Part shown: in pieces, positions 1-42,468 of the stretch
Layout: each line of letters begins with the position of its first letter
Numbering within the stretch: position 1 is the first letter of the stretch
NCBI GenBank assembly: GCA_024400835.1
Contig: JAKSMC010000005.1
Coordinates: forward strand, 27,456 to 91,455
Source of the DNA: Bacteroidales bacterium
GTDB lineage: Bacteria > Bacteroidota > Bacteroidia > Bacteroidales > WCHB1-69
DNA: 64,000 bases
Direction: 5' to 3'
Translations under genes and position numbers: made by a program
Notes under the pieces: generated by a model
Told to the model about the DNA's origin: nothing
The model's database searches: none
The model's input: only the letters and a program-made list of their open reading frames with translations

Positions 1-405
1 CAAAAAGCTATCATCGTAGGATGAAGAATAGCATCCGTCTGAATTAAGGGCGGTTTGTTTAAACCAATCGTATCCCCCATTGCACTTCATGATTACGCCA
101 ACAACGCCATTGGTGTGCGATGTTCTATCCTTACGCGTAATATTTTTCAAGCAGTATTCAATTTCCCAGTCAATCCATTTGCTCTCTTTCATTCGGGGAG
201 AAATGATTACGATGGTAACAGAAGTGTCATACATCATATCTCGCAGCACGCGTTTGATGTTCTCGGTAGAAGTATCTGTCAAATCGGGAGAATCACTGGT
301 TTCACCCTTGTAATAGGTGGCATCATCACCTAATGCATTTATGATGTCATCACGAAGCCCTTGCGCTTCATCATATTTGTACGAAATAAATGTTTTGTGT
401 GCCAT
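1..405 (-). CDS. TIR-like domain protein (ThsB / DUF1863 type), first 135 codons; gene runs off the left edge
   Basis: Own minus-strand translation from ATG at 405: MAHKTFISYKYDEAQGLRDD...SVTIVIISPRMKESKWIDWEIEYCL...GVVGVIMK. It is colinear with the FxSxxY start, the S-x-W-x2-WEI glutamate motif and the IIGI strand of ThsB-type TIR proteins. It is absent from the ORF track because it has no stop in the window. It starts 12 nt after the stop of the upstream gene. Confidence 0.6.
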   Translation of the reverse strand, partial: MAHKTFISYKYDEAQGLRDDIINALGDDATYYKGETSDSPDLTDTSTENIKRVLRDMMYDTSVTIVIISPRMKESKWIDWEIEYCLKNITRKDRTSHTNGVVGVIMKCNGGYDWFKQTALNSDGCYSSSYDDSFL

Positions 406-417
406 GGTTAACGAATA

Positions 418-828
418 TTAAAGTGTAAAATTTAATAATAATCCCAATAAAAGAAGTATGATTGTAATAGTGCCATACAATCCTATCATAGTTTTAGAAC
501 AGAATACTTTGAAGTAACTAACTTCGTATCGGCTTGTTCTCAGTTCAAAACGAGTTACATTTTTATCTTCAACAATGTCATTGTACAATTTGCGGTAAAG
601 TTTTTCTTGTTTGAGATAGTACGCATCCAAAGACCAAAAAGTAATGGATGGTGCTATAGCCACAAAAATATAAATAGCCTTTCCACTGCTTGCATATAAA
701 GCCAACAATGCGGATACAATGGCTATCATCCAGCCTTTAAGTTGGAATGAATTGGTGTTCAAACGAGTAATTACGTGTTGAACAAATTCTAAATGTTTAA
801 TTTTTTCTTCCATAATTAATGATTCCAT
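418..828 (-). CDS. Small multi-pass membrane protein (about 136 aa, three hydrophobic spans), unknown family
   Basis: ORF 418..843. The first ATG is at 828 (MESLIMEEK); the track start at 843 is TTG. Hydrophobic spans are WMIAIVSALLALYASS, IYIFVAIAPSITFWSL and IGLYGTITIILLLLGLLLNF. It looks operonic with the TIR gene. Confidence 0.6.
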   Translation of the reverse strand: MESLIMEEKIKHLEFVQHVITRLNTNSFQLKGWMIAIVSALLALYASSGKAIYIFVAIAPSITFWSLDAYYLKQEKLYRKLYNDIVEDKNVTRFELRTSRYEVSYFKVFCSKTMIGLYGTITIILLLLGLLLNFTL

Positions 829-914
829 TTTTTTGTTTTTCAATCTATCATTTCTTGTGTGACTTCCTGGTCTATTTTCATTATCTTATTAGTTGCCGGT
901 TGTATCTTGAAAGC

Positions 915-929
915 GTTACAATTTGTAAC
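915..929. promoter_or_regulatory. Perfect 7-1-7 palindrome GTTACAAtTTGTAAC in the leader of the TM-TIR operon (candidate operator)
   Basis: Read directly from the sequence. It lies between the only TAnnTTTG box (1047..1040) and the ATG at 828. Confidence 0.3.
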
Positions 930-1039
930 GGTTATTTTTTTCTCAGGTATCAGTCGTTTTTTTACGTACAATCCGTATGTTGGATTTGTTCTTCTTTCGT
1001 CATCAGTGATTTGTTGTTAGCGTGAGTTAACTGTTTTCG

Positions 1040-1066
1040 CAAAGATACAACTTTTCAAGATTATTG
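1040..1066 (-). promoter_or_regulatory. Bacteroidota-type -7 box (TATCTTTG on the minus strand, 1047..1040) preceded by the conserved motif CAATAATCTTGAAAAG (1066..1051)
   Basis: The minus strand reads CAATAATCTTGAAAAGTTGTATCTTTGCG. No other CAAAnnTA exists on the plus strand between 829 and 1040. Confidence 0.45.
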
Positions 1067-1079
1067 CCAATTGCTAATT

Positions 1080-2342
1080 TTATTGAAGTTCCGGCACTTT
1101 AATGTCGTATTTTGTCACGAGGTGGTCGTAGATGTCGTGCATCAGCTGGATATTATCTTCATTCAACATCGTGGGCTCAAACATCGTATTGCCAAAATGG
1201 GAGAGCACGTTGAGGGCGTTGGCGTGCAGGCGTTCAAATCCTTCGGTGTCCGCATCCTTTGCCGTAAATTCCTGTCCGCCAAAATGGAAGGTGATGTCGT
1301 CCAATATATGTCCGAGAGGCCCGTTCTTCATATTGCTTTGTCCCAACACTTGTGCGAACTGCTCCACGATGCCACGCATCACGTTAAAGTGATAACGTTG
1401 CAAACGGCAGGGCTCGCCATTGTCGTGGGCATCCAACTCTTTCTTAATCTGTGCCAGCATCGAAAGATGGTAAAACGATGGGGTATGCTCGGGCAGCGGC
1501 GAAGATTTGATATCGCCATTGCTGGATACATTGCGGTATAGATTAATGCCGAAACATCCTTTCAATCCGTTGCGCATTGTGTTGTAGAAAACAGTGTGGT
1601 GGGTTGAGATGATAAAGAAAGGTAGTCCCAATGTGTCTTGAATATTGGTGGCTTTGTAGTGGTTGAAGATGTCCTCGTGGCATTTGTTGATCAGCTCGAA
1701 AAGCTGGCTGGCAAAAAGGATGACGTTGTTGTCATCAAGCGAAGACATCGGGTCGTCGATGTAGATATATTTAATGTTCTTGAATTTGTCATCGCCCGTA
1801 ATCACCAGTTCCATAATGAAACGAAAAACACTCCATACGAAGAGTCGTTCTTCGCCGCGGGAGATTTTGATATAATCGGCTGTGTTCTTGTCGTCAATAT
1901 CGCGCGAAAACCAAACCTCGCGTGGAATATTGTCGCCCGTAACCACGATGTTGCCTTTCTCATCGTGATAATTGCTCTCAAAATGGGCCTTGAATCCGGC
2001 CAGCGTGCGGAGGTAGGCATTAATGCCTTCGCCATAATCATATCCGTCAAGGCCTTGTATGAGTTCCGAATCGGTGTTGATTACCATATATCGTTCGGCA
2101 TCGTTATCAAGGTCGTTGTGCCAGGTGAAGAGGTCCTCGGTAAAGGCATTGTAATAAAGCGTGTGATGCTGGTCATTCACTCTGTCTTGGTGAGCAAATT
2201 CGTATGAAAGTCGCGTCTTTCCAGTGCCGTTGAATGCAAACAGAAGCACGCAGTTGGTGAATTTCGTAACATTATTATTCGAATAAAAACCCAATCGGCT
2301 TTGAATGAACTTGACGATATTTTTGTATTCGTTTCTCTCCAT
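1080..2342 (-). CDS. AAA_13-type ABC-like ATPase, PrrC-like (candidate anticodon nuclease)
   Basis: ORF 1080..2348. The first ATG is at 2342 (MERNEYKN). Walker A is FNGTGKTRLS, the signature-like motif is SRGEERLF, and Walker B/D-loop is IYIDDPMSSLD. The C-terminal NVMRGIVEQF carries an R-x3-E spacing like the PrrC nuclease motif. It is adjacent to type I hsdR, as in the E. coli prr locus. Confidence 0.6.
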   Translation of the reverse strand: MERNEYKNIVKFIQSRLGFYSNNNVTKFTNCVLLFAFNGTGKTRLSYEFAHQDRVNDQHHTLYYNAFTEDLFTWHNDLDNDAERYMVINTDSELIQGLDGYDYGEGINAYLRTLAGFKAHFESNYHDEKGNIVVTGDNIPREVWFSRDIDDKNTADYIKISRGEERLFVWSVFRFIMELVITGDDKFKNIKYIYIDDPMSSLDDNNVILFASQLFELINKCHEDIFNHYKATNIQDTLGLPFFIISTHHTVFYNTMRNGLKGCFGINLYRNVSSNGDIKSSPLPEHTPSFYHLSMLAQIKKELDAHDNGEPCRLQRYHFNVMRGIVEQFAQVLGQSNMKNGPLGHILDDITFHFGGQEFTAKDADTEGFERLHANALNVLSHFGNTMFEPTMLNEDNIQLMHDIYDHLVTKYDIKVPELQ

Positions 2343-2347
2343 AATCA

Positions 2348-2385
2348 ATTGCTAATTTCTAATTGCACATTGCTAATTTCTAATT
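2348..2385. repeat. Tandem direct repeat, 2 x ATTGCTAATTTCTAATT with 21-bp period, filling the spacer between two genes
   Basis: Identical 17-mers at 2348..2364 and 2369..2385. Confidence 0.85.
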
Positions 2386-2395
2386 ACTTCAATCA

Positions 2396-3745
2396 TCATA
2401 ACAAAGGTGCCATATACAGAGGAAGGAACAGCATACCGTTTTCTTCTTTCAAATCGGCTCCATGCAACACGATCGGGGTTGTGAGGTATTCGCCGAATTT
2501 CTCCACACATTTTCGCAATGAAGAGAGCGTATAGCGCTGAGAGGATTTCACCTCAATAGGCGTGATGTTGTGCCTGGATGTCAATTTGCTTTTGGCGGTC
2601 AGGAAATCAATTTCCATACGTTCGCTTGCATCATCGCGGTTAGAATTGCTATAGAAATACAATTTGTGGCCATTGGAAGCAAGCATTTGGGCAACAATAT
2701 TTTCAACGAGCATACCTTCGTTCACTTCCAATTTGTTGAGTAGTAATTTCTGATAGAGTTCGATGGGCACTTTCCCGTTTTCGTCGAAAGCGTGGGCGAC
2801 AAGTAGCCCCGTATCGCCCATATAGCATTTGAGGGTGTTGCGTTCCATATTGAGGCGAAGCCCCACATTGGGTGCGGTACAGTTATAGCAGATGTTCACA
2901 ATGCCTGCGTCGGCAAGCCAGAAGAAGGCGTCGTCGTAGTCGCGGTAAGACGCGCCAGACTCCAATGCCGACAATCGGAATTTCTTCTCGTGTTTTTGAA
3001 GTTGAGAGGGAATCTGTTCAAAAATGCTTTTCACTTTGTGTTCCAAGCCTGCTGCGTATTTGGAAATATCGTTGGTATAAACCTGCAAAATTCCCCGTTT
3101 CACTTGGTCCACCTTGTCGAAATCCTTGGAGTTGACAAATGCTTGAACGGCTTGCGGCATTCCACCCACAATCATATAGGTGCGGAGATACTCCATTGCT
3201 TTGCGGTGGTGTGGCCCCATCTGCTGGCGTCTTTCGAAACATTGCCGTATATATGGCATCAATAAGTCATTGCCAATAGCCCAAAGAAATTCCTCGAAGT
3301 CCATCGGAAACATCGGTATGGCCTCCTCTTCGGAAGGAATGACAATGTCGCGCACATTTTTCTTGATGCTGACAAGCGAACCTGTTTCAATATAATGGAA
3401 TCGACCGTCAGCCACAAGATATTTGATGGCGGCACGGGCGCGTGGACAAAGCTGCACCTCGTCAAAAACTATGACAGATTTGCCCGGGGTGAGTCGCGTG
3501 CCGTAATGGATTTGCAGGTTCATCAGCAGTGTGTCGAGGTCTTCCAAGAGCGTGTCGAACCAGTTCCAAAGCACTTTATCGGCCTTGTTGAAGTCAATGA
3601 GTAGATATGAATCGTATTCGTTGCGGGCAAATTCCTCCACAATATAGCTTTTACCAATCCGTCGTGCCCCTTCTATCAGCACAGCTGTTGCACCATTTCG
3701 TTGTGTCTTCCACTCTAATAACTTATTGTAAATCTTTCTTTTCAT
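2396..3745 (-). CDS. AAA+ ATPase with C-terminal DUF4143 / PD-(D/E)xK-like domain (COG1373 type), copy 1
   Basis: ORF 2396..3790. The likely start is the ATG at 3745 (MKRKIYNKLLEW). Walker A is EGARRIGKS and Walker B is VIVFDEVQ. The C-terminal EIDFL...IEVKSS has a D...ExK pattern. Confidence 0.85.
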   Translation of the reverse strand: MKRKIYNKLLEWKTQRNGATAVLIEGARRIGKSYIVEEFARNEYDSYLLIDFNKADKVLWNWFDTLLEDLDTLLMNLQIHYGTRLTPGKSVIVFDEVQLCPRARAAIKYLVADGRFHYIETGSLVSIKKNVRDIVIPSEEEAIPMFPMDFEEFLWAIGNDLLMPYIRQCFERRQQMGPHHRKAMEYLRTYMIVGGMPQAVQAFVNSKDFDKVDQVKRGILQVYTNDISKYAAGLEHKVKSIFEQIPSQLQKHEKKFRLSALESGASYRDYDDAFFWLADAGIVNICYNCTAPNVGLRLNMERNTLKCYMGDTGLLVAHAFDENGKVPIELYQKLLLNKLEVNEGMLVENIVAQMLASNGHKLYFYSNSNRDDASERMEIDFLTAKSKLTSRHNITPIEVKSSQRYTLSSLRKCVEKFGEYLTTPIVLHGADLKEENGMLFLPLYMAPLL

Positions 3746-3757
3746 AAACAAACTCAG

Positions 3758-3839
3758 CTTTTCAAGATTATTGAACGTGCAAAAATACAACTTTTCAAGA
3801 TTATTGAAAGCACAAATTTACAACTTTTCAAGATTATTG
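3758..3839. repeat. Three tandem copies (33-bp period) of CTTTTCAAGATTATTG, two of them each followed by a -7-like box on the minus strand
   Basis: Motif copies at 3758..3773, 3791..3806 and 3824..3839. Minus-strand TATTTTTG is at 3787..3780 and TAAATTTG at 3820..3813. The array lies directly upstream of the ATPase ATG at 3745. Confidence 0.85.
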
Positions 3840-3873
3840 GTATTTTTCGTTGATAATTGCTCATTACTAATTG

Positions 3874-6828
3874 CTAATTAACATACGCGCTCAATCCTTC
3901 AATCTTACGTCCTGCGGCAAGGCGTTTGAAATGCGGAGCCAGGTCTTTCATAAGGTTCTCTTTGGCGGCCTTGCGTACTTTCCAACCCAGATTGATAAAG
4001 ATTTCGTTGAGCTTGTCTTCGTCAATACGGGCGAAACGAATGGTCTCGGTGATGAAGGCCAGCAGAACGTCCTTATCCACGCCGTAGTTATCCGCAATTT
4101 CGGCAAAGGTGTTGTTAATCATCTGCTCCTTGAATTGCTGATACCCGCTTTTGACTTCATCGTCAGACATTTCGGTGCCCAAGGGCAACGTATCTATGTA
4201 GGCGGAGACATACTCTTTCTCGTCGGCCATATCGGAACTGGAGATGAGGATGGAGAGCAGTTGTTCCTTGGTCATCTTCTGTTTGTGTGTTGGGCGCGTG
4301 TAGAGGGAAATCAGGTGCATAATGTAATCGTAATCCACCAGGGCAGAGGCGAAGAGCACCAACTCGAAATCATAATCTACGTATATGTGGTCGGATGAAT
4401 TGCCATCCAAGATTTTGGCTTTCACTTCTTTGGCCGTTTCCAGATAGGCGCCTCGGAAAGCGCGGAGGGTGTCTTCATCGAGGTCGTTTTCAATCGTCTC
4501 TTTCTGTTCAGGGGTGAGGTCGGTATATTGGTCCAGACGCGTTTTGAGCGCCTGCACTTTCTTGAAAGCGTCGATGAAGTCCATTTTGGCTTCGGTGCCG
4601 GAGAGGTTTCCAACTTCCTCGGGAGTGCAATCGAGCCCGTGCCCGTTCATAGTGGAAGCGAGCGCTTGCACGGCGTTGTGATAATCGCGAATCACCTCGG
4701 AGGCGGGCTCTACCAGCCAGATTTTCTTGTCCGCTTCCACATCGGTGCCGGAAAACAGCGTGATGGCTTCATCCACGCGGGCACGCAAATCGCGATAGCA
4801 AATGATATTGCCGTAGGGCTTGGTGGCGTTGAGAATACGGTTGGTTCTGGAAAATGCCTGGATGAGGGAGTGGTATTTGAGGTCTTTATCCACATAAAGT
4901 GTGTTGAGGTACTTGGAGTCGAAACCCGTCAGCAGCATATCCACGACAATGACGATGTCGATTTTTTGGTCTTGAGGGATGGAAGAATTGGGGAACTTTT
5001 GACTCTTGATACGTTTTTGCACATCACGGTAGTAGTCGTCGAAGTTGTTGATTGAGTGCGCCGTGCCAAACCGGCTGTTATACAGCGTGATGATGTTGTT
5101 GAGCGCCAACTTTTTGCCAGAAGGGTCCTTCTGAAGGTCCTGCTTTTCCTGCTCCAAATCATCCTGCAGTTGCTCAATGTCTTTATTGCCTTCGGCAGGA
5201 GGCGTGAAAACGCAAGCAATGTTCAGGTATTTGTAGTTCGGTTTGGTGACCATAAATTCCTCTTGTTTCTGCTCGAAAAGGCGGTGGTAGGCGATGGCCT
5301 CATCAATAGAGCTGGTGGCGAAGATGGCATTGAATTTGCGGTGGTTGGTGGCCGCATCGTGTTTCAGCAGAATGTTCTCCACAATGGCCTCTTGAGAAGG
5401 CTTAACGATTTGGTCTCCATTTTCTCCGTGGTAGTAGTCGATGTGAAATTGCAGTACATTTTTATCATCAATGGCATTGGTGATGGTATATTGGTGGAGT
5501 TGCTTTTGAAATACGTCTTTTGTGGTAACGTAGCTGGCCGTTGTTCCATCCACTCTGGTGTAGGAACTGTTGTCTTCAAAAATAGGTGTTCCCGTAAAAC
5601 CGAACATCTGGGCATTCGGGAAGAACTCCTCGATGGCACGACGGTTTTCGCCAAACTGGCTGCGATGGCATTCGTCGAAAATGAAGATGATGTGTTTGTC
5701 TTTGAGCTTGTGGAGGCGTTCCACATAGTTCTGACGGTTGTTGGGGTCCAGTGCCAGACCGAGTTTTTGGATGGTGGTCACAATCACTTTGTCGGCGTAG
5801 TCGTCCGAGCACAAGCGATTGACGAGTGCGCCGGTGTTGATGTTTTCTTCCACGCATCCTTCTTGGAACTTGTTGAATTCATCGCGGGTTTGGGTGTCCA
5901 AGTCTTTGCGATCAACCACAAAGATGCACTTTTCGACGTTTGTATTTTCCTTCAGCAGAGTAGAAGCCTTAAAAGAAGTCAGCGTCTTTCCGGAACCGGT
6001 TGTGTGCCAGATATAGCCATTGCCGGAATTTTGGTCAACGCATTGCAAGATACTTTCGACAGCGTAAATCTGGTACGGGCGCATCACCATCATCTGCCTG
6101 GTACTTTGTACGAGGACCATATAGCGGCTGATGAGGCGTCCGAGCGTACATTTCGGCAACATCAGGGAAGTAAAGGCGTGCAGATTCAGCACCTTGTGCC
6201 CTTCGTGGTTGGCAGCCCGACAAACCGGAAGGTATTGTTCGTCGGCATCAAATTTGAAAAACTCGTCATTATTGTTGGCGAAATAAAGCGTATTGGAAGC
6301 GCCGTTGCTCACAATGAACAGCTGCATAAAACACATCAGAGTGTTGGTATAGCCATTGCCACGATCTTTCTTATATTTTGCTATTTGTTCGATAGCTTTG
6401 ATTGGGGAGATGGTCACGTCCTTAAGTTCGATTTGTACCAGTGGAAGTCCATTGATAAGGATGACCACATCATAACGATGATTGCTGTCTTCCGTGTTGA
6501 TACGGAGCTGGTTGCACACCTCGTACGTGTTTTTGCACCAGTCTTTGATGTTGACGAGTGTATAGTTGAGCGGTGTGCCGTCGTCGCGAATGAACGTCTG
6601 CTTTTCACGAAGTGTTTGTGAAGCCTTGAACACATCCGGGGTGATGATGTCGCCAAGAAGTCTGTCAAATTCATGGTCGGAAAGGTGAACGAAATTCAGC
6701 TTCTCGAATTTCTCTCGGAAATTATTGCGAAGAGTTTCCGAATTGCGGATGTCGTTGCGATAAACGTAGTTTAACTCTTGAAGATGGCATATCAGTTCTT
6801 GTTCGATTGTTGATTCTTTAGCGCTCAT
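3874..6828 (-). CDS. hsdR: Type I restriction enzyme R subunit (HsdR)
   Basis: ORF 3874..6909. The likely start is the ATG at 6828 (MSAKESTIEQ), 45 nt downstream of a -7 box. N-terminal nuclease motif is YDVVILINGLPLVQIELK (D...ExK). SF2 motor motifs are HTTGSGKTLT and IFDECHRSQ. About 985 aa, long helical C-terminus. Confidence 0.9.
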   Translation of the reverse strand: MSAKESTIEQELICHLQELNYVYRNDIRNSETLRNNFREKFEKLNFVHLSDHEFDRLLGDIITPDVFKASQTLREKQTFIRDDGTPLNYTLVNIKDWCKNTYEVCNQLRINTEDSNHRYDVVILINGLPLVQIELKDVTISPIKAIEQIAKYKKDRGNGYTNTLMCFMQLFIVSNGASNTLYFANNNDEFFKFDADEQYLPVCRAANHEGHKVLNLHAFTSLMLPKCTLGRLISRYMVLVQSTRQMMVMRPYQIYAVESILQCVDQNSGNGYIWHTTGSGKTLTSFKASTLLKENTNVEKCIFVVDRKDLDTQTRDEFNKFQEGCVEENINTGALVNRLCSDDYADKVIVTTIQKLGLALDPNNRQNYVERLHKLKDKHIIFIFDECHRSQFGENRRAIEEFFPNAQMFGFTGTPIFEDNSSYTRVDGTTASYVTTKDVFQKQLHQYTITNAIDDKNVLQFHIDYYHGENGDQIVKPSQEAIVENILLKHDAATNHRKFNAIFATSSIDEAIAYHRLFEQKQEEFMVTKPNYKYLNIACVFTPPAEGNKDIEQLQDDLEQEKQDLQKDPSGKKLALNNIITLYNSRFGTAHSINNFDDYYRDVQKRIKSQKFPNSSIPQDQKIDIVIVVDMLLTGFDSKYLNTLYVDKDLKYHSLIQAFSRTNRILNATKPYGNIICYRDLRARVDEAITLFSGTDVEADKKIWLVEPASEVIRDYHNAVQALASTMNGHGLDCTPEEVGNLSGTEAKMDFIDAFKKVQALKTRLDQYTDLTPEQKETIENDLDEDTLRAFRGAYLETAKEVKAKILDGNSSDHIYVDYDFELVLFASALVDYDYIMHLISLYTRPTHKQKMTKEQLLSILISSSDMADEKEYVSAYIDTLPLGTEMSDDEVKSGYQQFKEQMINNTFAEIADNYGVDKDVLLAFITETIRFARIDEDKLNEIFINLGWKVRKAAKENLMKDLAPHFKRLAAGRKIEGLSAYVN

Positions 6829-6872
6829 TCTGATTGTATTCTTATGGTTTTGTCTGTTTTGATTTACGGCTG

Positions 6873-6908
6873 CAAAAATACAGCGGGGTTGTGCAATCTT
6901 TTTGCACA
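6873..6908 (-). promoter_or_regulatory. hsdR promoter -7 box (TATTTTTG, 6880..6873) preceded by inverted repeat TGTGCAA-N5-TTGCACA (6890..6908)
   Basis: Both elements were read directly. The inverted repeat sits right after the WYL gene stop (6911) and upstream of the -7 box. Confidence 0.4.
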
Positions 6909-6910
6909 AA

Positions 6911-7921
6911 TCATTCTTCCCTATATTTTTCTGTCATTTTTTCTGCAAATTCTGCCATTTTAAGTCGTACATCTGCTGGTTCAAGCACTTCAAGGTCTGG
7001 CCCGTATGCGAGGAGAAGTTGGTACAATTCCTTGTTCGGGATGACTTTTAATTCAATAATGCCCTCGGAGGCGCGATGGTTGCGCTGTGACGGGTGAAGT
7101 GGTTTGGAAAGGACGTACGGCAGGCGTTTCTGCGCAATGCGCAGGACTATATTCTTTATTTCTTCGTTGGTTTTTGTCACGCCGACAAAGTCTTCGAAAT
7201 ATTCACCAAAGTCGCAGAATGTGTTTTCGACAAATTCAACGGGTGCCGGTTTGAGGCTCTTGATTCTGTCTAAGGGCATATTGACAATGTTATTGTGAAT
7301 GCCATCGGTGGTGAATCCCAGTAGAAACCATCGATTGTTATATTGTTTTATAAAATATGGATGCACAATGCTTTCGAATGATGGTTTGCCGTATGGTTCG
7401 TAGGTGATGTGCAGAGGCTGCTTGCTGATGATGGCCTCAAACAGTGGGCTAAGATACTCTAAGCCGGAGGCCTCCTCGTTGGTGTCGAATGCGATTACGC
7501 TTTGCGGTGATGGTAATGTGAATCCATATTTATCCTCCAACTGTCCGACAATCTCCTGTATCCTTTCGAACTGCGGCAACCCGTGGAACTGTTGAAGGAG
7601 TAGCATAAGCGATTTCAGCTGCTCAAGCTGTTGCGCATTGAGATCATTCTTCCAAATGGAATAATTGGGGTCTGCATATCGGTAGAAACGTCTTCCTCCG
7701 TTGTAGCAGGGAGTTGCAAATACGACGTTCCAATCGTGGTTCGATTCCATTGCCCGGATGTCATATTGAACCGTGCGCTTTGAAACATTCGGTTGGTCGT
7801 TGTTCTCAAGAGTGCGGTTTACAGCTTTTAGCAAATCGTCTATATAATAGTATTTGACTCGGTCGCTGAAACAGCGGTCAAGGGCCTGGTAACGCAAAGT
7901 AGCAAGTTTGGTGTTTGGCAT
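6911..7921 (-). CDS. HTH-WYL domain transcriptional regulator (BrxR/CapW-like architecture)
   Basis: ORF 6911..7960. The likely start is the ATG at 7921 (MPNTKLATLRYQALD), downstream of TACTTTTG. It has an N-terminal wHTH-like segment. The central region YFIKQYNNRWFLLGF is typical of WYL domains. The C-terminal extension resembles WCX. Confidence 0.8.
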   Translation of the reverse strand: MPNTKLATLRYQALDRCFSDRVKYYYIDDLLKAVNRTLENNDQPNVSKRTVQYDIRAMESNHDWNVVFATPCYNGGRRFYRYADPNYSIWKNDLNAQQLEQLKSLMLLLQQFHGLPQFERIQEIVGQLEDKYGFTLPSPQSVIAFDTNEEASGLEYLSPLFEAIISKQPLHITYEPYGKPSFESIVHPYFIKQYNNRWFLLGFTTDGIHNNIVNMPLDRIKSLKPAPVEFVENTFCDFGEYFEDFVGVTKTNEEIKNIVLRIAQKRLPYVLSKPLHPSQRNHRASEGIIELKVIPNKELYQLLLAYGPDLEVLEPADVRLKMAEFAEKMTEKYREE

Positions 7922-7947
7922 TCGCGAAAGTGTTGGTTTTGATAGCG

Positions 7948-7955
7948 CAAAAGTA
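7948..7955 (-). promoter_or_regulatory. -7 box TACTTTTG for the WYL regulator gene
   Basis: The minus strand reads TACTTTTG, about 26 nt upstream of the ATG at 7921. Confidence 0.45.
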
Positions 7956-8182
7956 CGCATTTTTTTGTTGATATTTCAGTATGATAAGGAATAAAAAATG
8001 TTGTATTCTTCTTTTCTGGCAGAAAAAGGAGATGAAGCGAGAATTATGGTAAGCGTGCCTTGAAAACCGCCCAATGCAATCACAGAGACATTTGTTTTAT
8101 TTCGTCAGGTGTGGCCGAAATGACCAATCTGCTCGGACAATTTGCAAGAAAGAAAGGTCTGACTTTTTATTAAAATTATTAG

Positions 8183-8190
8183 TACTTTTG
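8183..8190 (+). promoter_or_regulatory. -7 box TACTTTTG for the nuclease gene
   Basis: Matches TAnnTTTG, 42 nt upstream of the ATG at 8232. Confidence 0.45.
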
Positions 8191-8231
8191 CGACTGAAAA
8201 TAGAAGTACGATAGAACCTTAATAAACCATT

Positions 8232-9059
8232 ATGAAACTAATATTCTTTTCATTTTTATTTGGCCTGTTCTCACTCTATTCATGTGAAAATAAACCCCAA
8301 ACAGTTTCGCCTCCAATGTTGGAAACAAAAACGGTTGAAGATAACAGTACTCATTCTGCTTCCCGTTCGATAGACCTTTCCCTCCTCGAAATACCTCAAG
8401 GCGGCTCCGAAGGGACTATCATTTCCCATCTCGGCTACGCCCTCTCTTACAACCACCAGAACCTCACTCCCAACTGGGTGGCGTACGAGCTGACCGCTGA
8501 GGAAGCAAACGGACAGGTCCCGCGAAGCAACTGCTATGCCGAAGACCCGGATATCAAAGGACGACAGGCTACATTGGACGATTACCGTGGCTCGGGCTGG
8601 GATAGGGGACACCTGGCACCCGCTGCCGATATGAAATGGTCGCCGCAAGCTATGGACGAGAGTTTCTACCTTTCCAATATGTGCCCGCAAAACCAAACCT
8701 TTAATGGCGGCTCTTGGGAAACCACCGAAAAGATGGGACGTCGCATCGCAAAGCAGTACGGCAAGGTCTATATCGTCTGCGGCCCAATCTATACGGACCA
8801 CCAATTCGGCACTATCGGGGCAAACAAAGTGGCTGTCCCGGATGCCTTCTTCAAGGCCTTCCTGATTGAGTCGAACGGCACGTATGCCGCCATCGGCTTC
8901 CTGATGCAGAATGTCCCCGAACACCAGGATCTGAAGGCGTCTTCTATGTCCATCGATGAGCTGGAAGACATCATCCATCTCGACCTTTTCCACAATTTGG
9001 ACGATGCCGTCGAAAACGAAATAGAAGCGCAGGTGGTGAAAAAATATTGGGGGATATAA
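8232..9059 (+). CDS. DNA/RNA non-specific endonuclease (NucA/EndoG beta-beta-alpha-Me family), lipoprotein-type signal
   Basis: Active-site motif is WDRGHLAPAADM, followed by SNMCPQ. The N-terminal signal has LFSLYSC (lipobox-like). Confidence 0.9.
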   Translation: MKLIFFSFLFGLFSLYSCENKPQTVSPPMLETKTVEDNSTHSASRSIDLSLLEIPQGGSEGTIISHLGYALSYNHQNLTPNWVAYELTAEEANGQVPRSNCYAEDPDIKGRQATLDDYRGSGWDRGHLAPAADMKWSPQAMDESFYLSNMCPQNQTFNGGSWETTEKMGRRIAKQYGKVYIVCGPIYTDHQFGTIGANKVAVPDAFFKAFLIESNGTYAAIGFLMQNVPEHQDLKASSMSIDELEDIIHLDLFHNLDDAVENEIEAQVVKKYWGI

Positions 9060-9072
9060 GGAGGATGTGTCT
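8767..9072 (+). repeat. Direct repeat copy A (306 bp): 3' end of the nuclease gene plus 13 bp
   Basis: Aligns base for base with 10568..10873 (offset 1801 bp). I counted 8 mismatches and no gaps. Confidence 0.95.
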
Positions 9073-9106
9073 GTATTTAAAGTCGAATTTTTTGAACTTA
9101 GAATTT

Positions 9107-10378
9107 TTACATATCTAATTGCAACCATTTCGTGGCAGGCACTACGTGGATGGTCTCGTTATCTTTCTCAATCACCTCCTCGGTATTGAATGTGATCAGG
9201 GTGAGTTTTCGGCAATTGAATTTCTTGGCGCCTTGCACCAAACCATTGATTTCGCGCTGGCGTGTTTTCTCGGACGTAATCTTGTAACTCACCTGTATCA
9301 GCTCCTGTACCATGCCGTTTTTGGCCACCAGAAAATCCACATCAAAAGACTTTTCCCTGTAGTAAAATATTTCGGCATATTGGTGATGATAGCGGCGCAG
9401 CAGTTCAATGCACACCACATTTTCCAATCGCCATCCCAAGTTTTCAAGCGAAAAGGTGTCGTTGCGCTCGCTTGCCATTGCCACATCCACCACATAGCAT
9501 TTCTCATTGCAGACTCGTTCGCGTGCCTTAAACGAGAACTTCTTCACCCCGACAAACAAAAAGGCCTCTTTCAAGTACCCGAAATACTTGTCTGCCGTAT
9601 GGTTGGAAATGCCAAATAACTTGCCGATAACCGTGGCCGAAAATTCCTGTGCGAAATTGTCAGCCAGATAGGCTGCCATTTTTCTCAATATTTCTTCTTG
9701 GCGGATTTTGAAACGACGTGCTATGTCATTGCGGATAATGGCATTGAACAATCCGTCGATATAGTTCTTGGGATTGTCCTCTTTCTGCAATTCGGGGAAT
9801 CCGCCAGTAGTAAGATATTTGTGCAGAGCATTTTGTCGCAACCCAACCGCCTTGGTGGTAATGGATGTGGTGTCAATGTTGTTTATGAGGCAATACTCGG
9901 CAAACGAAAAGGGATACAGCTCCACTTTGTTGTGGCGTCCGGTAAGGTGCGTGATGAGTTCATTGGACAGCAACTTGGAATTGGAACCCGTAAGGAATAT
10001 GCGTTTCTTTTGCCGGAGCAGGCGGTTTACAAACAACGGCCACGATTCCACATTCTGAATCTCATCAAAAAACAGGCAATCAACATTGCCATAGACAATA
10101 TAAATCGCTTCCAATAACTTGTTCAGATCGTCGGATTGCAGGGTTGCCAAGCGCTCATCGTCAAAGTTCACAAATGCGCATTCAATGGCATTGTCAACCA
10201 GGTATTTTGTGCAAAGGGTGGATTTTCCACTTCGCCTTACACCAATGACTACTTGTGCCAAACTGCTGTCTGGTGACAGTTGCGAAGCTTCGAGGCGTTC
10301 ACAGAAGGAACTCATGTCTTCGGACTTGATTTCCTCGCGTTGATCGGCTATTATCGTGGCTAATTCTTCTACTAACAT
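9107..10378 (-). CDS. AAA+ ATPase with DUF4143 domain (COG1373 type), copy 2
   Basis: Walker A is GVRRSGKS and Walker B is LFFDEIQ. The C-terminal DVDFLV...IQVSYK has Q and S in place of the ExK residues seen in copy 1. Confidence 0.85.
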   Translation of the reverse strand: MLVEELATIIADQREEIKSEDMSSFCERLEASQLSPDSSLAQVVIGVRRSGKSTLCTKYLVDNAIECAFVNFDDERLATLQSDDLNKLLEAIYIVYGNVDCLFFDEIQNVESWPLFVNRLLRQKKRIFLTGSNSKLLSNELITHLTGRHNKVELYPFSFAEYCLINNIDTTSITTKAVGLRQNALHKYLTTGGFPELQKEDNPKNYIDGLFNAIIRNDIARRFKIRQEEILRKMAAYLADNFAQEFSATVIGKLFGISNHTADKYFGYLKEAFLFVGVKKFSFKARERVCNEKCYVVDVAMASERNDTFSLENLGWRLENVVCIELLRRYHHQYAEIFYYREKSFDVDFLVAKNGMVQELIQVSYKITSEKTRQREINGLVQGAKKFNCRKLTLITFNTEEVIEKDNETIHVVPATKWLQLDM

Positions 10379-10381
10379 ACT

Positions 10382-10403
10382 CCGAAAATTTTCGGCAAAG
10401 ATA
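10382..10403 (-). promoter_or_regulatory. -7 box TATCTTTG (10403..10396) followed by perfect palindrome CCGAAAATTTTCGG (10395..10382) in the short leader of ATPase copy 2
   Basis: The minus strand reads TTGTATCTTTGCCGAAAATTTTCGGAGTATG. Confidence 0.45.
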
Positions 10404-10563
10404 CAATAAATTTCCTTATTTTCCTAAATTTATTATTGCAAACTTCCTTATTTTTCCAATTTTGTTATAGTAAAGTTCCTTGTTTTTCTATTGATTTTTA
10501 GTAATATATTGAAAATCATTTATATAAAAATAAACCACAAACTTTTCAAGATTATTCACATCA

Positions 10564-10860
10564 TTGATCTATATCGTCTGCGGCCCCATCTATACGAACC
10601 ACCAATACGGCACTATCGGGGCAAACAAAGTGGCTGTCCCGGATGCCTTCTTCAAGGCCTTCCTGATTGAGTCGAACGGCACGTATGCCGCCATCGGCTT
10701 CCTGATGCAGAATGTCCCCGAACACCAGGATCTGAAGGCGTCTTCTATGTCCATCGATGAGCTGGAAGACATCATCCATCTCGACCTTTTCCACAATTTG
10801 GACGATGCCGTCGAAAACGAAATAGAGGCGCAGGTGGTGAAAAGATATTGGGGAATATAG
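10564..10860 (+). pseudogene. Detached 3' fragment of the non-specific nuclease gene (last ~97 codons)
   Basis: The translation IYIVCGPIYTNHQYGTIGANKVAVPDAFF...VVKRYWGI is near-identical to the C-terminus of 8232..9059. It lacks the catalytic DRGH region and the signal peptide. Confidence 0.85.
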
Positions 10861-10873
10861 GGCGGATGTGTCT
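10568..10873 (+). repeat. Direct repeat copy B (306 bp)
   Basis: See copy A. The conserved CTTTTCAAGATTATT motif (10542..10556) lies immediately to its left. Confidence 0.95.
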
Positions 10874-12354: not shown

Positions 12355-14418
12355 TTATTGGCGCGTGCTTCTTTCCTTGATAATCTCTTCCTGCTTAGCG
12401 GCTGGCATCGGCATATATTGGTAGAATTCCATAGAGTAGTTGGCGCGGCCGGAGGTTACGTTGCGCAGGGCTGTAGCATAGCCGAACATTTCCATCAGCG
12501 GACAGAAACCGTCCAGCTTTTGGGAACCCTTTCTGAAACGGCGCATGTTCTCGATGCGGCCGCGACGTTTGTTGAGGTCGCGGGTGACATTGCCGATGAA
12601 GTCGTCAGGGGTGTTGACTTCTATCTTCATGACCGGCTCCATGATGATGGGGTTGGCTTTGCGGAAGGCCTGTTTGAAACATTGCGCGGCGCAAAGTTGG
12701 AACGCCATGTCACTGGAGTCAACAGGATGGTAGCTGCCATCGACCAGTACGCACTTGACATCCACTACCGGGTATTCGGCAATAGGACTCTTCTCCATTG
12801 CTTTGCGCAAGCCCTTTTCAATAGACGGGATGTACTCTTTGGGGATGACGCCGCCCTTGGTGACATCCACAAACTCGAAGCCCTTGCCGGGGTTCGGTTC
12901 GAAGCGGATGACGGTGTTTGCAAATTGTCCCTTGCCACCGCTCTGCTTGACATGCTTGTAGGCATTTTCAACAGAGGTGGTGATTGTTTCGCGGAAGGAT
13001 ACGGAGGGCTCGCCAACGGAGATGGGCACCTTGAACTCGTCGCGGATGCGCTCCACGAGGATCTCCAAGTGCAGTTCGCCCATGCCGGCGATGATGGTCT
13101 CTTCCGTCTCTTCATCGTAATGGGAGTGGAAAGAGGGGTCTTCGTTTGTGAGCTTGGCTAAGGCTTCGCCCAGCTTGTCGCGGCTCTTCTTGTCTTCCAA
13201 GTTCACTTTCATCTCGATGACGGCAGGCGGCACGGAGATGGATTCCAAAAGAACGGGTTGGCTTTCGTCGCACAGGGTGTCGCCCGTGCGGGTGTATTTC
13301 ATACCGACGAGGGCGACGATTTCGCCGCAGCCGGCTTCTGTGATTTCCTGTCTCTCTTTCGCTTTGATGCGGAAGATTCGTCCGACGCGCTCGTTCTTGC
13401 CCTTGTTGGTGTTGTAAACACTCATGCCGCTGGTGAGCTTGCCGCTGACGATGCGGATGAAGGTCTGCTGGCCCACATACGGGTCGTTGATGAGCTTGAA
13501 TGCCAAGGCGGAGAATTTCTCGTTGTTGGACGGATTGCGTTGGATGGTCTTTTCTTCATCGTACGGGTCGTGTGCCATCACGGCGCCGATGTCGGTAGGG
13601 GAGGGCAGATAGTCCACGATGGCGTCGAGCAGCAACTGGATGCCCTTGTTTTTGTAGGCCGCACCGCAGAGCACTGGCGTGACCAGCAACTTGATGGTGG
13701 ATTCGCGGATGGCCTTCTTCAGCATCTCTTCCGAGATCTCGCCGTCTTCCAGATAAAGGGTGGCGATATCATCGTCAAAGTCGGCGAGTTTCTCAATCAT
13801 CGACTTGCGGGCTTCTGTGGCCGCTGCAACGAGTTCGGCGGGAATATCGCCCACGATGCGCTCTTTTTCGTTGAAGGTGATAGACTTCATAGTGACCAAG
13901 TCAATCATGCCTTGGAAGTCGCTTTCGGCCCCGATGGGAAGGTGGATGGGCATGGCGTTGGCGCCGAGGTATTTGTTCATCTGGCTGACCACCTCGTTGA
14001 AGTCGGCGCCCGTGCGGTCCATCTTGTTGACGAAGGCGATGCGGGGCACGCGGTATTTCTCGGATTGGTTCCAGACGGTTTCACTCTGCGGTTCCACGCC
14101 ACCTACGGCGCAGAATACGGCAACCATGCCGTCGATGACGCGCAGGGAACGCTCTACCTCGATGGTGAAATCGACGTGGCCCGGCGTGTCAATGAGGTTT
14201 ATCTGGTGATCTTTCCAGGTGGCCGTGATGGCGGCGGATGCGATGGTGATACCACGCTCCTGCTCTTGCTTCATGAAGTCCATGGTGGCTTGCCCGTCGT
14301 GGGTTTCACCTACTTTTCTATTTACACCTGTGAAAAATAATATTCTTTCTGATACAGTGGTCTTGCCTGCATCAATGTGTGCGGCGATGCCGATGTTTCT
14401 GAGTTTGGAGATTTGCAT
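12355..14418 (-). CDS. Elongation factor G paralog (translational GTPase)
   Basis: Motifs are [17 protein letters not shown] and NKMD. The EF-G-type segment is [23 protein letters not shown]. 687 aa. It is not in a ribosomal-protein (str) context. Confidence 0.9.
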
Positions 14419-23022: not shown

Positions 23023-23104
23023 GCCCGGATGGCGGAATTGGTAGACGCGTACGTTTCAGGTGCGTATGCCGCAAGGTGTGCAGGTTCAAGTCCTGTTCCG
23101 GGCA
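23023..23104 (+). tRNA. tRNA-Leu (anticodon CAG), type II with long variable arm
   Basis: Hand fold. The acceptor GCCCGGA pairs with TCCGGGC. The anticodon stem is TACGT/GCGTA with loop TTCAGGT. The T-loop is GGTTCAAGTCC. CCA is not encoded. Confidence 0.9.
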
Positions 23105-23112
23105 CGAAAGAA

Positions 23113-42074: not shown

Positions 42075-42080
42075 CTTTTG

Positions 42081-42468
42081 TGGAGCCGGAGGGAGTCGAA
42101 CCCTCGTCCAAACAAGCCGCAAGAATGCTTTCTACAAGTTTAGTCTTCGTTTACTTTTCGTCTGCTGTATGGTACGAGACCGACCTCACAGTAGCTTATC
42201 TTCTAAAATTTCGCTTGCGCATCGAAGCCTACGCTTGCTATCTGTCCTTTTATGACACTTCGTACCGGACGTTGGACGGAATAACTTCCGGGGAAGCGCC
42301 CGCGGCTACAGACCTTGTCTGCGCGGCAGGATCCGCAACAATTACGCTGCGAATGCATAAGAAGTTTCGCCGTTTATTGGCATCGAGAGTTAACTTTTAA
42401 CGGAATCAGCTCACAAACTCCGACCTGCTTACATTCCCCCGTTCTCGCTGTCAAAACCAAACGACCCC
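42081..42468 (-). ncRNA. ssrA: tmRNA (SsrA), tag reading frame GETSYAFAA-stop at 42371..42342
   Basis: The minus-strand 5' end is GGGGTCGTTTGGTTTTGACAGCGAGA. The 3' end is a tRNA-like T arm, GGGTTCGACTCCCTCCGGCTCCA. The acceptor pairing includes G3:U. The tag resembles the Bacteroidota GE(N/T)NYALAA tags. Confidence 0.92.

Follow-up and report, generated by a model that had tools for sequence, protein, structure and literature searches.

How an apparently intact HsdR restriction subunit could be encoded without its HsdM and HsdS partners was the question raised by positions 1–7955 of a 64,000-nucleotide stretch (the window) of the Bacteroidales contig JAKSMC010000005.1. A preliminary description, made from the letters of this stretch, had recognized six genes on the minus strand, hsdR among them, and had left two explanations: either hsdM and hsdS lie beyond the TIR gene at the window edge, with three unrelated defence genes interposed, or HsdR is stranded or re-used. 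Our analysis indicates that the region is very probably the promoter-proximal part of one type IC-family (EcoR124/EcoprrI-like) restriction-modification (R-M) operon of gut Bacteroidales. Its predicted order is a WYL regulator, hsdR, a DUF4143 ATPase, a PrrC-like gene, a candidate effector with three transmembrane (TM) helices paired with a ThsB TIR gene, hsdS and hsdM. The paradox of an HsdR without HsdM and HsdS is thereby settled as an effect of the window edge and not of biology.

Location of hsdS and hsdM

Six open reading frames (ORFs) were present on the minus strand of positions 1–7955 where the preliminary description had placed them (ORF list and translations). An independent gene call on L001, a ~9-kb contig that is 100% identical to window 1–8642, gave the same start codons (WYL, 336 aa; HsdR, 984; ATPase, 449; PrrC-like, 420; TM, 136; and TIR); L-numbers denote the contigs and loci compared. 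Gene identities were assigned by Pfam, TIGRFAM and PADLOC profile searches of the window proteins and upheld those first proposed. The genes are as follows.

6911..7921, minus strand: WYL/WCX transcriptional regulator (BrxR/CapW-like), 336 aa (Pfam, PADLOC)
3874..6828, minus strand: hsdR, intact gene for a 984-aa type I restriction subunit (EcoR124/type IC family) (profiles, PDB match)
2396..3745, minus strand: ATPase with AAA_14 and DUF4143 (PADLOC candidate PDC-S01), 449 aa (Pfam, PADLOC)
1080..2342, minus strand: PrrC-like ABC-ATPase/anticodon nuclease, 420 aa (PADLOC PrrC and invariant residues)
418..828, minus strand: small membrane protein of 136 aa with three helices (PDC-M50A), a candidate Thoeris effector (PADLOC and AlphaFold2 (AF2))
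1..405, minus strand: ThsB-type TIR gene, codons 1–135 of 220, the remainder lying past the window edge (Pfam ThsB_TIR, PADLOC ThsB)

HsdR was complete, as had been described. Pfam identified HSDR_N, SWI2_SNF2, T1R_D3-like and EcoR124_C domains, the PADLOC REase_I profile matched end to end at 1002 bits (positions 5–971 of a 976-position model), and TIGR00348 scored 384 bits against a cut-off of 285. The reading frame is considered intact because TTGSGKT, DECH and D...ELK are all visible in its translation. The HsdR proteins of L162 and L002 were 97–98% identical to it and of equal length.

A tblastn search with HsdM and HsdS of relatives detected neither gene in the whole 64-kb window, in agreement with the earlier observation that none was in view. 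However, L001 extends 356 bases past window coordinate 1. In this extension the TIR gene runs to its stop codon, giving a protein of 220 aa, and an ORF that opens with MTTNNNNRVPQLRFPGFTGEWVVKKLG follows 15 bp later; its first 27 codons are readable, and its start matches the conserved HsdS N-termini of L003/L004 and L162. L162, a sibling contig found via its 98%-identical TIR, is 97.8% identical to window 9001–1070 and 410–1 and carries the full operon, WYL-HsdR (984 aa)-ATPase (449)-PrrC-like (420)-TIR195-TM136-TIR165-TIR220-HsdS (396)-HsdM (538), followed by a 222-aa ORF. Its 396-aa HsdS is a Methylase_S protein beginning with MTTNNNNRVPELRFPGFTGEWEVKKLG, and its 538-aa HsdM comprises HsdM_N and N6_Mtase. 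The same gene order, with an additional Schlafen/HATPase_c_4 gene between hsdS and hsdM, was found in L164–L167. As judged from the identical contig and the sibling, hsdS and hsdM sit just past coordinate 1 and the window ends inside the cargo; it was thus the first of the two explanations that proved right.

In a PDB sequence search, the closest solved relative of HsdR was EcoR124I HsdR (2W00, 376 bits), and the HsdM of L162 matched EcoR124II M at 314 bits as compared with 51 bits for EcoKI M. Because HsdR and HsdM match EcoR124 proteins, we assign the R-M system to the type IC family, to which EcoprrI belongs.

We surveyed 80 HsdR relatives from species-representative genomes and based the counts on the 62 loci with at least 5 kb of downstream sequence. 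hsdM was present in 61 of these and hsdS in 60, both being located downstream on the same strand in 59. Embedded genes are usual in this HsdR clade: they were present in 56 of the 59 loci with both hsdS and hsdM, and only 3 were without any gap of at least 400 bp. A PrrC-like gene occurred in 36 of the 62 loci, mostly between hsdS and hsdM, and the other gap ORFs encoded DUF1016/YhcG nucleases, RhuM/Bro-N, PIN, GmrSD, Schlafen/AlbA_2, Fic, AbiJ, AbiTii and HTH-M78 proteins and DUF4143 ATPases. The two closest species having complete flanks, both with an 85%-identical HsdR, showed the orders WYL-hsdR-DUF4143-hsdS-DUF4062/HATPase_c_4-hsdM-RmuC (L003) and hsdR-DUF4143-hsdS-HTH/M78+170aa-hsdM-AAA_21-RmuC (L004).

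The idea that HsdR works alone, as a helicase-nuclease that the neighbouring ATPases or the TIR protein have drawn into a new methylase-independent system, would account for the lack of hsdM and hsdS within the 64-kb window and for the three unrelated genes directly after hsdR, but it is extremely improbable, because an identical contig has the hsdS start 15 bp past the TIR gene, the 97.8% sibling carries the full hsdS-hsdM pair, both partners follow on the same strand in 59 of 62 related loci, and the hsdR-only loci are merely contigs that stop shortly after hsdR.

Loci with the order hsdR-hsdS-prrC-hsdM and an HsdR 55–60% identical to that of the window were seen in Pseudomonadota, Bacillota, Bacteroidota, Campylobacterota and Chloroflexota and in L007, a metagenome-assembled genome (MAG) of a Halobacteriota archaeon. 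Sequence comparison indicates that the PrrC-bearing type IC operon has been spread widely by horizontal transfer.

Cargo modules between hsdR and hsdS

The PrrC-like gene lies between hsdR and hsdS. Its product matched PADLOC PrrC at 279 bits (model positions 32–347 of 372) and Pfam AAA_13 at 31.4, below the gathering score of 36; it gave no PDB sequence match at E ≤ 0.01 and was only 28–39% identical to the other PrrC-like proteins sampled. The triad of E. coli PrrC consists of Arg320, Glu324 and His356. We aligned the window protein with 40 PrrC-like proteins of type I loci, a set that does not include E. coli PrrC, and found that the ABC-NTPase residues were kept and invariant in all 41 proteins: G41-K42-T43 (Walker A), S161-R-G-E164 (signature) and D196-D197-P198 (Walker B)...D203. 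In the C-terminal part, R323-x3-E327 and H382 (and also H318) fall in invariant columns of the same alignment, and we infer that R323, E327 and H382 are equivalent to the E. coli triad.

PrrC has been described as an ABC-NTPase combined with a nuclease that has a “putative catalytic triad” (PMC3874168). Its gene is nearly always embedded in a type I R-M locus, and 96.7% of the genes embedded in such loci are co-oriented (10.1101/2024.01.29.577857), and in EcoprrI the embedded PrrC guards the R-M enzyme (PMC12707154, 10.1101/2024.01.29.577857). The window locus resembles EcoprrI/prr in having a type IC-family HsdR and HsdM and, inside the hsd operon, a PrrC-like gene with all family-invariant motifs. 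It differs in its order, which is hsdR...hsdS-hsdM with PrrC before hsdS, whereas the majority of the clade has hsdR-hsdS-prrC-hsdM. It also differs in carrying two further modules and a WYL regulator.

The 135 codons of the TIR gene in the window were sufficient for matches to Pfam ThsB_TIR (PF08937, 48 bits) and PADLOC ThsB (204 bits), and the adjoining membrane protein matched PADLOC PDC-M50A at 140 bits. The AF2 model of the latter (predicted local distance difference test score, pLDDT, 86.6) contains helices at residues 2–48, 52–86 and 112–135; a fold search of the PDB with this model returned nothing better than E = 1.3. A hydropathy scan revealed 2–3 TM helices in close homologues (L083, L085 and others), and the family comprises at least 1818 clusters of relatives with conserved polar residues. 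Among 13 TM relatives, PF10028 (DUF2270) was detected in 5, with sub-threshold scores (best E 0.0029) and matches confined to profile positions 23–87 of 184; the best family among the relatives was 8xMP (PF24838), with a best E of 6.7e-6 that is still sub-threshold.

In 75 metagenome loci with TIR homologues of 76–83% identity, the upstream partner was a SIR2 + STALD(SLOG) ThsA in 45, another TIR in 15 and a 3-TM protein of 131–149 aa in 13. The TIR homologues beside a SIR2-STALD ThsA were 78–83% identical. The TM-TIR pair is also found between hsdR and hsdS in L083 and L085. In Thoeris type V, ThsB is combined with the three-TM DUF2270 effector ThsF, which is triggered by a cyclic ADP-ribose (3'cADPR); the type is enriched in Bacteroidota, and SIR2-SLOG and DUF2270 are alternative partners of one TIR cluster (10.64898/2025.12.03.692087). 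The window pair has two likenesses to this type, namely a ThsB_TIR gene adjoining a small three-TM protein, and close ThsB homologues whose partner is either SIR2-SLOG ThsA or this TM protein. It differs from it in that the TM protein is without a PF10028 match. Signalling by 3'cADPR from the TIR to the effector is suggested only indirectly, by the pairing of the same ThsB clade with SLOG-containing ThsA. The two genes thus look like a Thoeris module with a membrane effector, which we call type V-like only, with membership unproven, because the Pfam link to DUF2270 is sub-threshold.

Compared with PADLOC PDC-M50, which consists of a TM protein (M50A) and a TIR protein (M50B), the window matches M50A, but its TIR scores only 30 bits on M50B. 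The M50B profile gave 200 bits with TIR165 of L162, a protein that is absent from the window. L162 has TIR195-TM-TIR165-TIR220 at 7919–9813 where window 1069–411 has TM-TIR220 only, and the TM proteins of the two are only 63% identical. Because otherwise near-identical operons differ at this point, the Thoeris-like module has been replaced or reduced by recombination.

The third module, the ATPase at 2396–3745, combines AAA_14 with DUF4143 and matched PADLOC PDC-S01 at 379 bits; it gave no PDB sequence match at E ≤ 0.01. A 93%-identical ATPase occupies the same slot in L003. PDC-S01 is a very abundant candidate family in which an ATPase is fused to a PD-(D/E)xK domain (PMC12988326). A related gene was found outside the operon:

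9107..10378, minus strand: second DUF4143 ATPase (“S01b”, PDC-S01 type) (Pfam, PADLOC)

A protein 91% identical to S01b fills the hsdR-hsdS slot in L004.

It is also conceivable, though somewhat unlikely, that the cargo consists of selfish insertions in a tolerant slot, functionally unlinked to the R-M genes and served by their own promoters. The cassette-specific –7 boxes described below, the differing cargo of the sibling and related loci, the presence of the same ATPase type outside the operon at 9107–10378 and the occurrence of TM-TIR pairs and TIR homologues in many non-R-M contexts are all in line with such an accidental juxtaposition. However, a PrrC-like gene is embedded in 36 of the 62 loci of this HsdR clade, and published PrrC proteins are almost exclusively embedded and, in EcoprrI, functionally coupled. 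Moreover, all genes are co-oriented and the gaps are very short, with 12 bp between TM and TIR and 15 bp between TIR and hsdS. Transcription of hsdS must accordingly either pass across the cargo or start at a promoter within the latter.

Placement of the cargo within one R-M operon agrees with the literature, in which the embedding of defence genes has been found to be systematic in type I R-M operons (“guilt-by-embedding”; preprint of Payne et al., 2024; 10.1101/2024.01.29.577857). The likeness lies in the co-oriented cargo between hsd genes, and PDC-S01 and PDC-M50A, both matched by window cargo, derive from such type I embedding (10.1101/2024.01.29.577857). Nothing essential differs from the published cases; the window adds an example with three modules, from an uncultured Bacteroidales lineage, and is without TIR165, the best PDC-M50B match. 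According to the preliminary description, the island would be only a juxtaposition of known systems if hsdM and hsdS adjoined it and its other genes were already catalogued. We found hsdS adjacent past the edge, hsdM there via the sibling, and remaining genes that can all be assigned to systems already catalogued or listed as candidates. Published layers are combined here in a new instance, which is no new kind of system. The locus exemplifies type I R-M operons that carry embedded abortive-infection modules, WYL regulators heading such operons and Thoeris TIR sensors re-paired with different effectors.

Proposed regulation and exchange of the cargo

The promoter-like and repeated elements of the island are as follows.

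7948..7955, minus strand: –7 promoter box TACTTTTG of the Bacteroidetes type, 27 nt before the ATG of the WYL gene at 7921 (regular-expression scan and sequence)
6889..6909, no strand assigned: perfect inverted repeat TTGTGCAA-N5-TTGCACAA, candidate operator, lying after the WYL stop codon and before the hsdR –7 box
6873..6880, minus strand: –7 promoter box TATTTTTG of hsdR, a column conserved in L162, L002, L003 and L085
3753..3838, minus strand: three tandem copies of the junction repeat AATAATCTTGAAAAGTTGTA with a 33-bp period, two of them with –7 boxes (3820–3813 and 3787–3780)
1046..1065, minus strand: lone junction-repeat copy at the boundary of PrrC and TM-TIR; its 3' end and the next bases form the –7 box TATCTTTG (1047–1040)

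The first gene product matched Pfam WYL (42 bits) and WCX (39 bits), both above the cut-off, and PADLOC WYL (94 bits). Its N-terminal ~60 residues gave no match to a helix-turn-helix (HTH) model at E ≤ 0.01, and an HTH at this position is inferred solely from a “SKRTVQYDIRAME”-type sequence. The 336-aa start is favoured because the –7 box at 7948–7955 sits 27 nt before the ATG at 7921.

The inverted repeat at 6889–6909 is the sole copy in the window, with none upstream of the WYL gene itself. In L002 the inverted repeat and promoter occur twice, once before a two-gene insert between WYL and hsdR and once before hsdR. In L003/L085 a different inverted repeat, GTTCA-N7-TGAAC, is found at the same position, and their WYL proteins are only 35–36% identical to that of the window. 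Because the inverted repeat co-varies with the regulator across lineages, these data suggest that the WYL protein controls the hsdR promoter. Among the ~80 hsdR loci sampled, the WYL gene is limited to this Bacteroidales sub-lineage.

Two relatives showed further changes around the regulator. In L002, a horse-faeces Bacteroidales MAG with a 98%-identical HsdR, the two additional genes between WYL and hsdR (6236–9555) encode an 834-aa protein with weak mad2-/HsdS-like regions and a C-terminal HATPase_c and a 270-aa protein without matches; the left neighbour of the island there is tgt and not nucA. In L004, the stop-to-stop frame of hsdR opens with ~30 codons (9911–10001) that match the C terminus of the WYL profile (E 2.7e-6). 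The sequence suggests that L004 lost the WYL regulator by deletion.

BrxR-family WYL regulators adjoin type I enzymes in 34 of 210 cases (PMC9122601). The window regulator resembles BrxR/CapW in its WYL and WCX domains, in its position as the first gene, co-oriented with the defence operon, and in the inverted repeat with a 5-bp spacer beside a promoter. One difference is that its candidate operator is found at the hsdR promoter, downstream of the gene for the regulator; another is that it has no sequence match to the solved BrxR/CapW proteins.

The –7 consensus of Bacteroides promoters is TAnnTTTG. A regular-expression scan located it upstream of WYL (7955–7948), hsdR (6880–6873), the ATPase gene (3820–3813 and 3787–3780) and the TM gene (1047–1040), but neither the 53-bp gap between ATPase and PrrC nor the 12-bp gap between TM and TIR contained it. 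The earlier proposal that every junction carries its own promoter-like box therefore stands for these four genes and fails for the other two, and PrrC and TIR are probably co-transcribed with their respective upstream genes. The related proposal of a mosaic of independently expressed cassettes is retained in part: cassette-specific –7 boxes and swaps between strains support it, whereas PrrC and TIR are without a box of their own, and partly independent expression of the cassettes is plausible from the sequence. A sigma-70 scan was set aside, as it gave 30 promoter-like matches versus 19.5 in shuffled sequence (standard deviation 4.2) and its consensus is inapplicable to Bacteroidetes. The usual spacing between –33 and –7 elements is 19–21 nt, and a complete promoter inside the 33-bp repeats is not claimed because the –33 element, at a spacing of ~25 nt, does not fit.

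The junction 20-mer AATAATCTTGAAAAGTTGTA occurs in 5 copies in the window versus 0.01 expected, and its 3' end opens the –7 box. Three copies stand in tandem between hsdR and the ATPase gene, one between PrrC and TM, and one at the edge of S01b (10537–10556). The repeat follows the hsdR stop codon in L002, L003 and L004 (~13005–13104 in all three) and in L162, and it flanks the ATPase-PrrC block on both sides in L162 (5150–5235 and 7950–8002) and in L164–L167. In this lineage its copies all lie at 5' edges of cargo cassettes, and it is absent from the other ~70 hsdR loci sampled. The cargo past the junction varies, being an S01-type ATPase in the window and L003 and S01b in L002 and L004. Because cargo differs downstream of a shared repeat, the cassettes appear to carry their own promoter-bearing junctions and to be swapped between strains. 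Matches of the repeat in viral contigs, 7 in number and all single-copy, were dropped, as they are about chance by estimate.

A simpler arrangement would be a single WYL-controlled transcript that runs from the hsdR promoter through hsdM, the TAnnTTTG boxes being incidental. The genes share one strand with short gaps, terminator-like matches are at chance (14 versus 12.0 expected) and none is convincing, and an operator-like inverted repeat is present at the hsdR promoter only. However, a –7-bearing 20-mer so far from chance, placed exactly at the 5' boundaries of cassettes in five related lineages, and the gaps preceding the ATPase gene (128 bp) and the TM gene (251 bp) speak against incidental boxes, and we consider it unlikely that one transcript accounts for the whole operon.

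A more elaborate proposal joins three elements and, taken as a whole, is quite unlikely. First, the type I operon of this lineage may serve as a small platform for cassettes, in which the 33-bp repeat (core AATAATCTTGAAAAGTTGTA), ending in a –7 box and marking the 5' edge of every cargo block, would supply both an autonomous promoter and the homology to swap, duplicate or export cassettes; the repeat flanks the ATPase-PrrC block on both sides and edges the ATPase copy beside nucA. Second, the hsdR promoter would be gated by a WYL repressor that evolves fast and whose operator varies along with it. Third, the 136-aa membrane protein could represent a Thoeris effector family apart from DUF2270/ThsF that reads the signal of SIR2-SLOG ThsA.

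Predicted function of the operon and its surroundings

In the type IC operon that we favour, HsdR, HsdM and HsdS would form a normal methylation-dependent restriction complex. By analogy with EcoprrI, the PrrC-like protein would act as a guard that cuts tRNA once this complex is inhibited. On infection, the TIR protein would make a signal of the cyclic ADP-ribose type, upon which the small membrane protein would damage the membrane in a Thoeris type V-like manner, and the DUF4143 ATPase would add a further candidate defence. The WYL protein is predicted to repress the hsdR promoter via the inverted repeat at 6889–6909; the ATPase-PrrC and TM-TIR blocks would also have –7 promoters of their own, and strains may exchange cargo by recombination at the lineage-specific, promoter-bearing 33-bp repeat.

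Several points weigh against this interpretation. The sequence of this strain reaches only codon 27 of hsdS, and its hsdM is placed by a sibling of 97.8% identity; as L162 differs from the window exactly in the Thoeris module, further differences downstream are possible. The 3-TM protein of the window gave no Pfam match, PF10028 included, and the WYL regulator gave no PDB sequence match at E ≤ 0.01, the solved BrxR/CapW structures included. PDC-S01 is a candidate defence family whose experimental validation is pending. Methylation, tRNA cleavage, signalling and repression are all predictions.

The locus has modest practical value in that guarding of the PrrC type, a DUF4143 candidate awaiting validation and a Thoeris variant with a membrane effector could be studied together in one compact natural operon of an uncultured gut Bacteroidales, and the candidate WYL operator and the cassette-junction repeat would be useful for studying how embedded cargo is regulated and exchanged. 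The residual interest lies in the promoter-bearing junction repeat, in the co-variation of regulator and operator, and in whether the TM protein is a ThsF relative or a separate effector family.

No RNA genes were found at the island edge, the nearest in the window being a tRNA-Leu gene at 23023. This tRNA-Leu(CAG) gene (23023–23105) and the tmRNA gene (42078–42468, tag peptide GETSYAFAA) are ordinary and distant from the island. Base composition was dropped as evidence of transfer, as the difference in G+C between positions 1–10860 (0.447) and the remainder (0.469) is too small. An island-free “empty site” was not found; a look-up of the flanking MATE gene matched only a 2.3-kb contig. Exact-protein look-ups found identical PrrC-like and TM proteins only in contig L001 and in NCBI assembly GCA_024500545.1.

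Directly after hsdM, a conserved ORF of 222–224 aa is present in L162 (13490–14158) and L164 (10205–10879). It has no PADLOC match and only a sub-threshold Pfam match to Trypsin_2 (20.9 bits versus a cut-off of 27.6); possibly the operon carries one more cargo gene here, at its 3' end.

On the other side of the island, the S01b cassette is flanked by a 306-bp direct repeat (window 8767–9072 and 10568–10873, 97.4% identical), which spans the 3' end of a nucA-like gene for a DNA/RNA non-specific endonuclease (8232–9059, plus strand). At the outer edge of S01b, the junction 20-mer at 10537–10556 is accompanied by ~15 nt of upstream sequence resembling the post-hsdR sequence of L004. The 306-bp repeat is the footprint that would be expected of an insertion by a single homologous crossover (Campbell-type).

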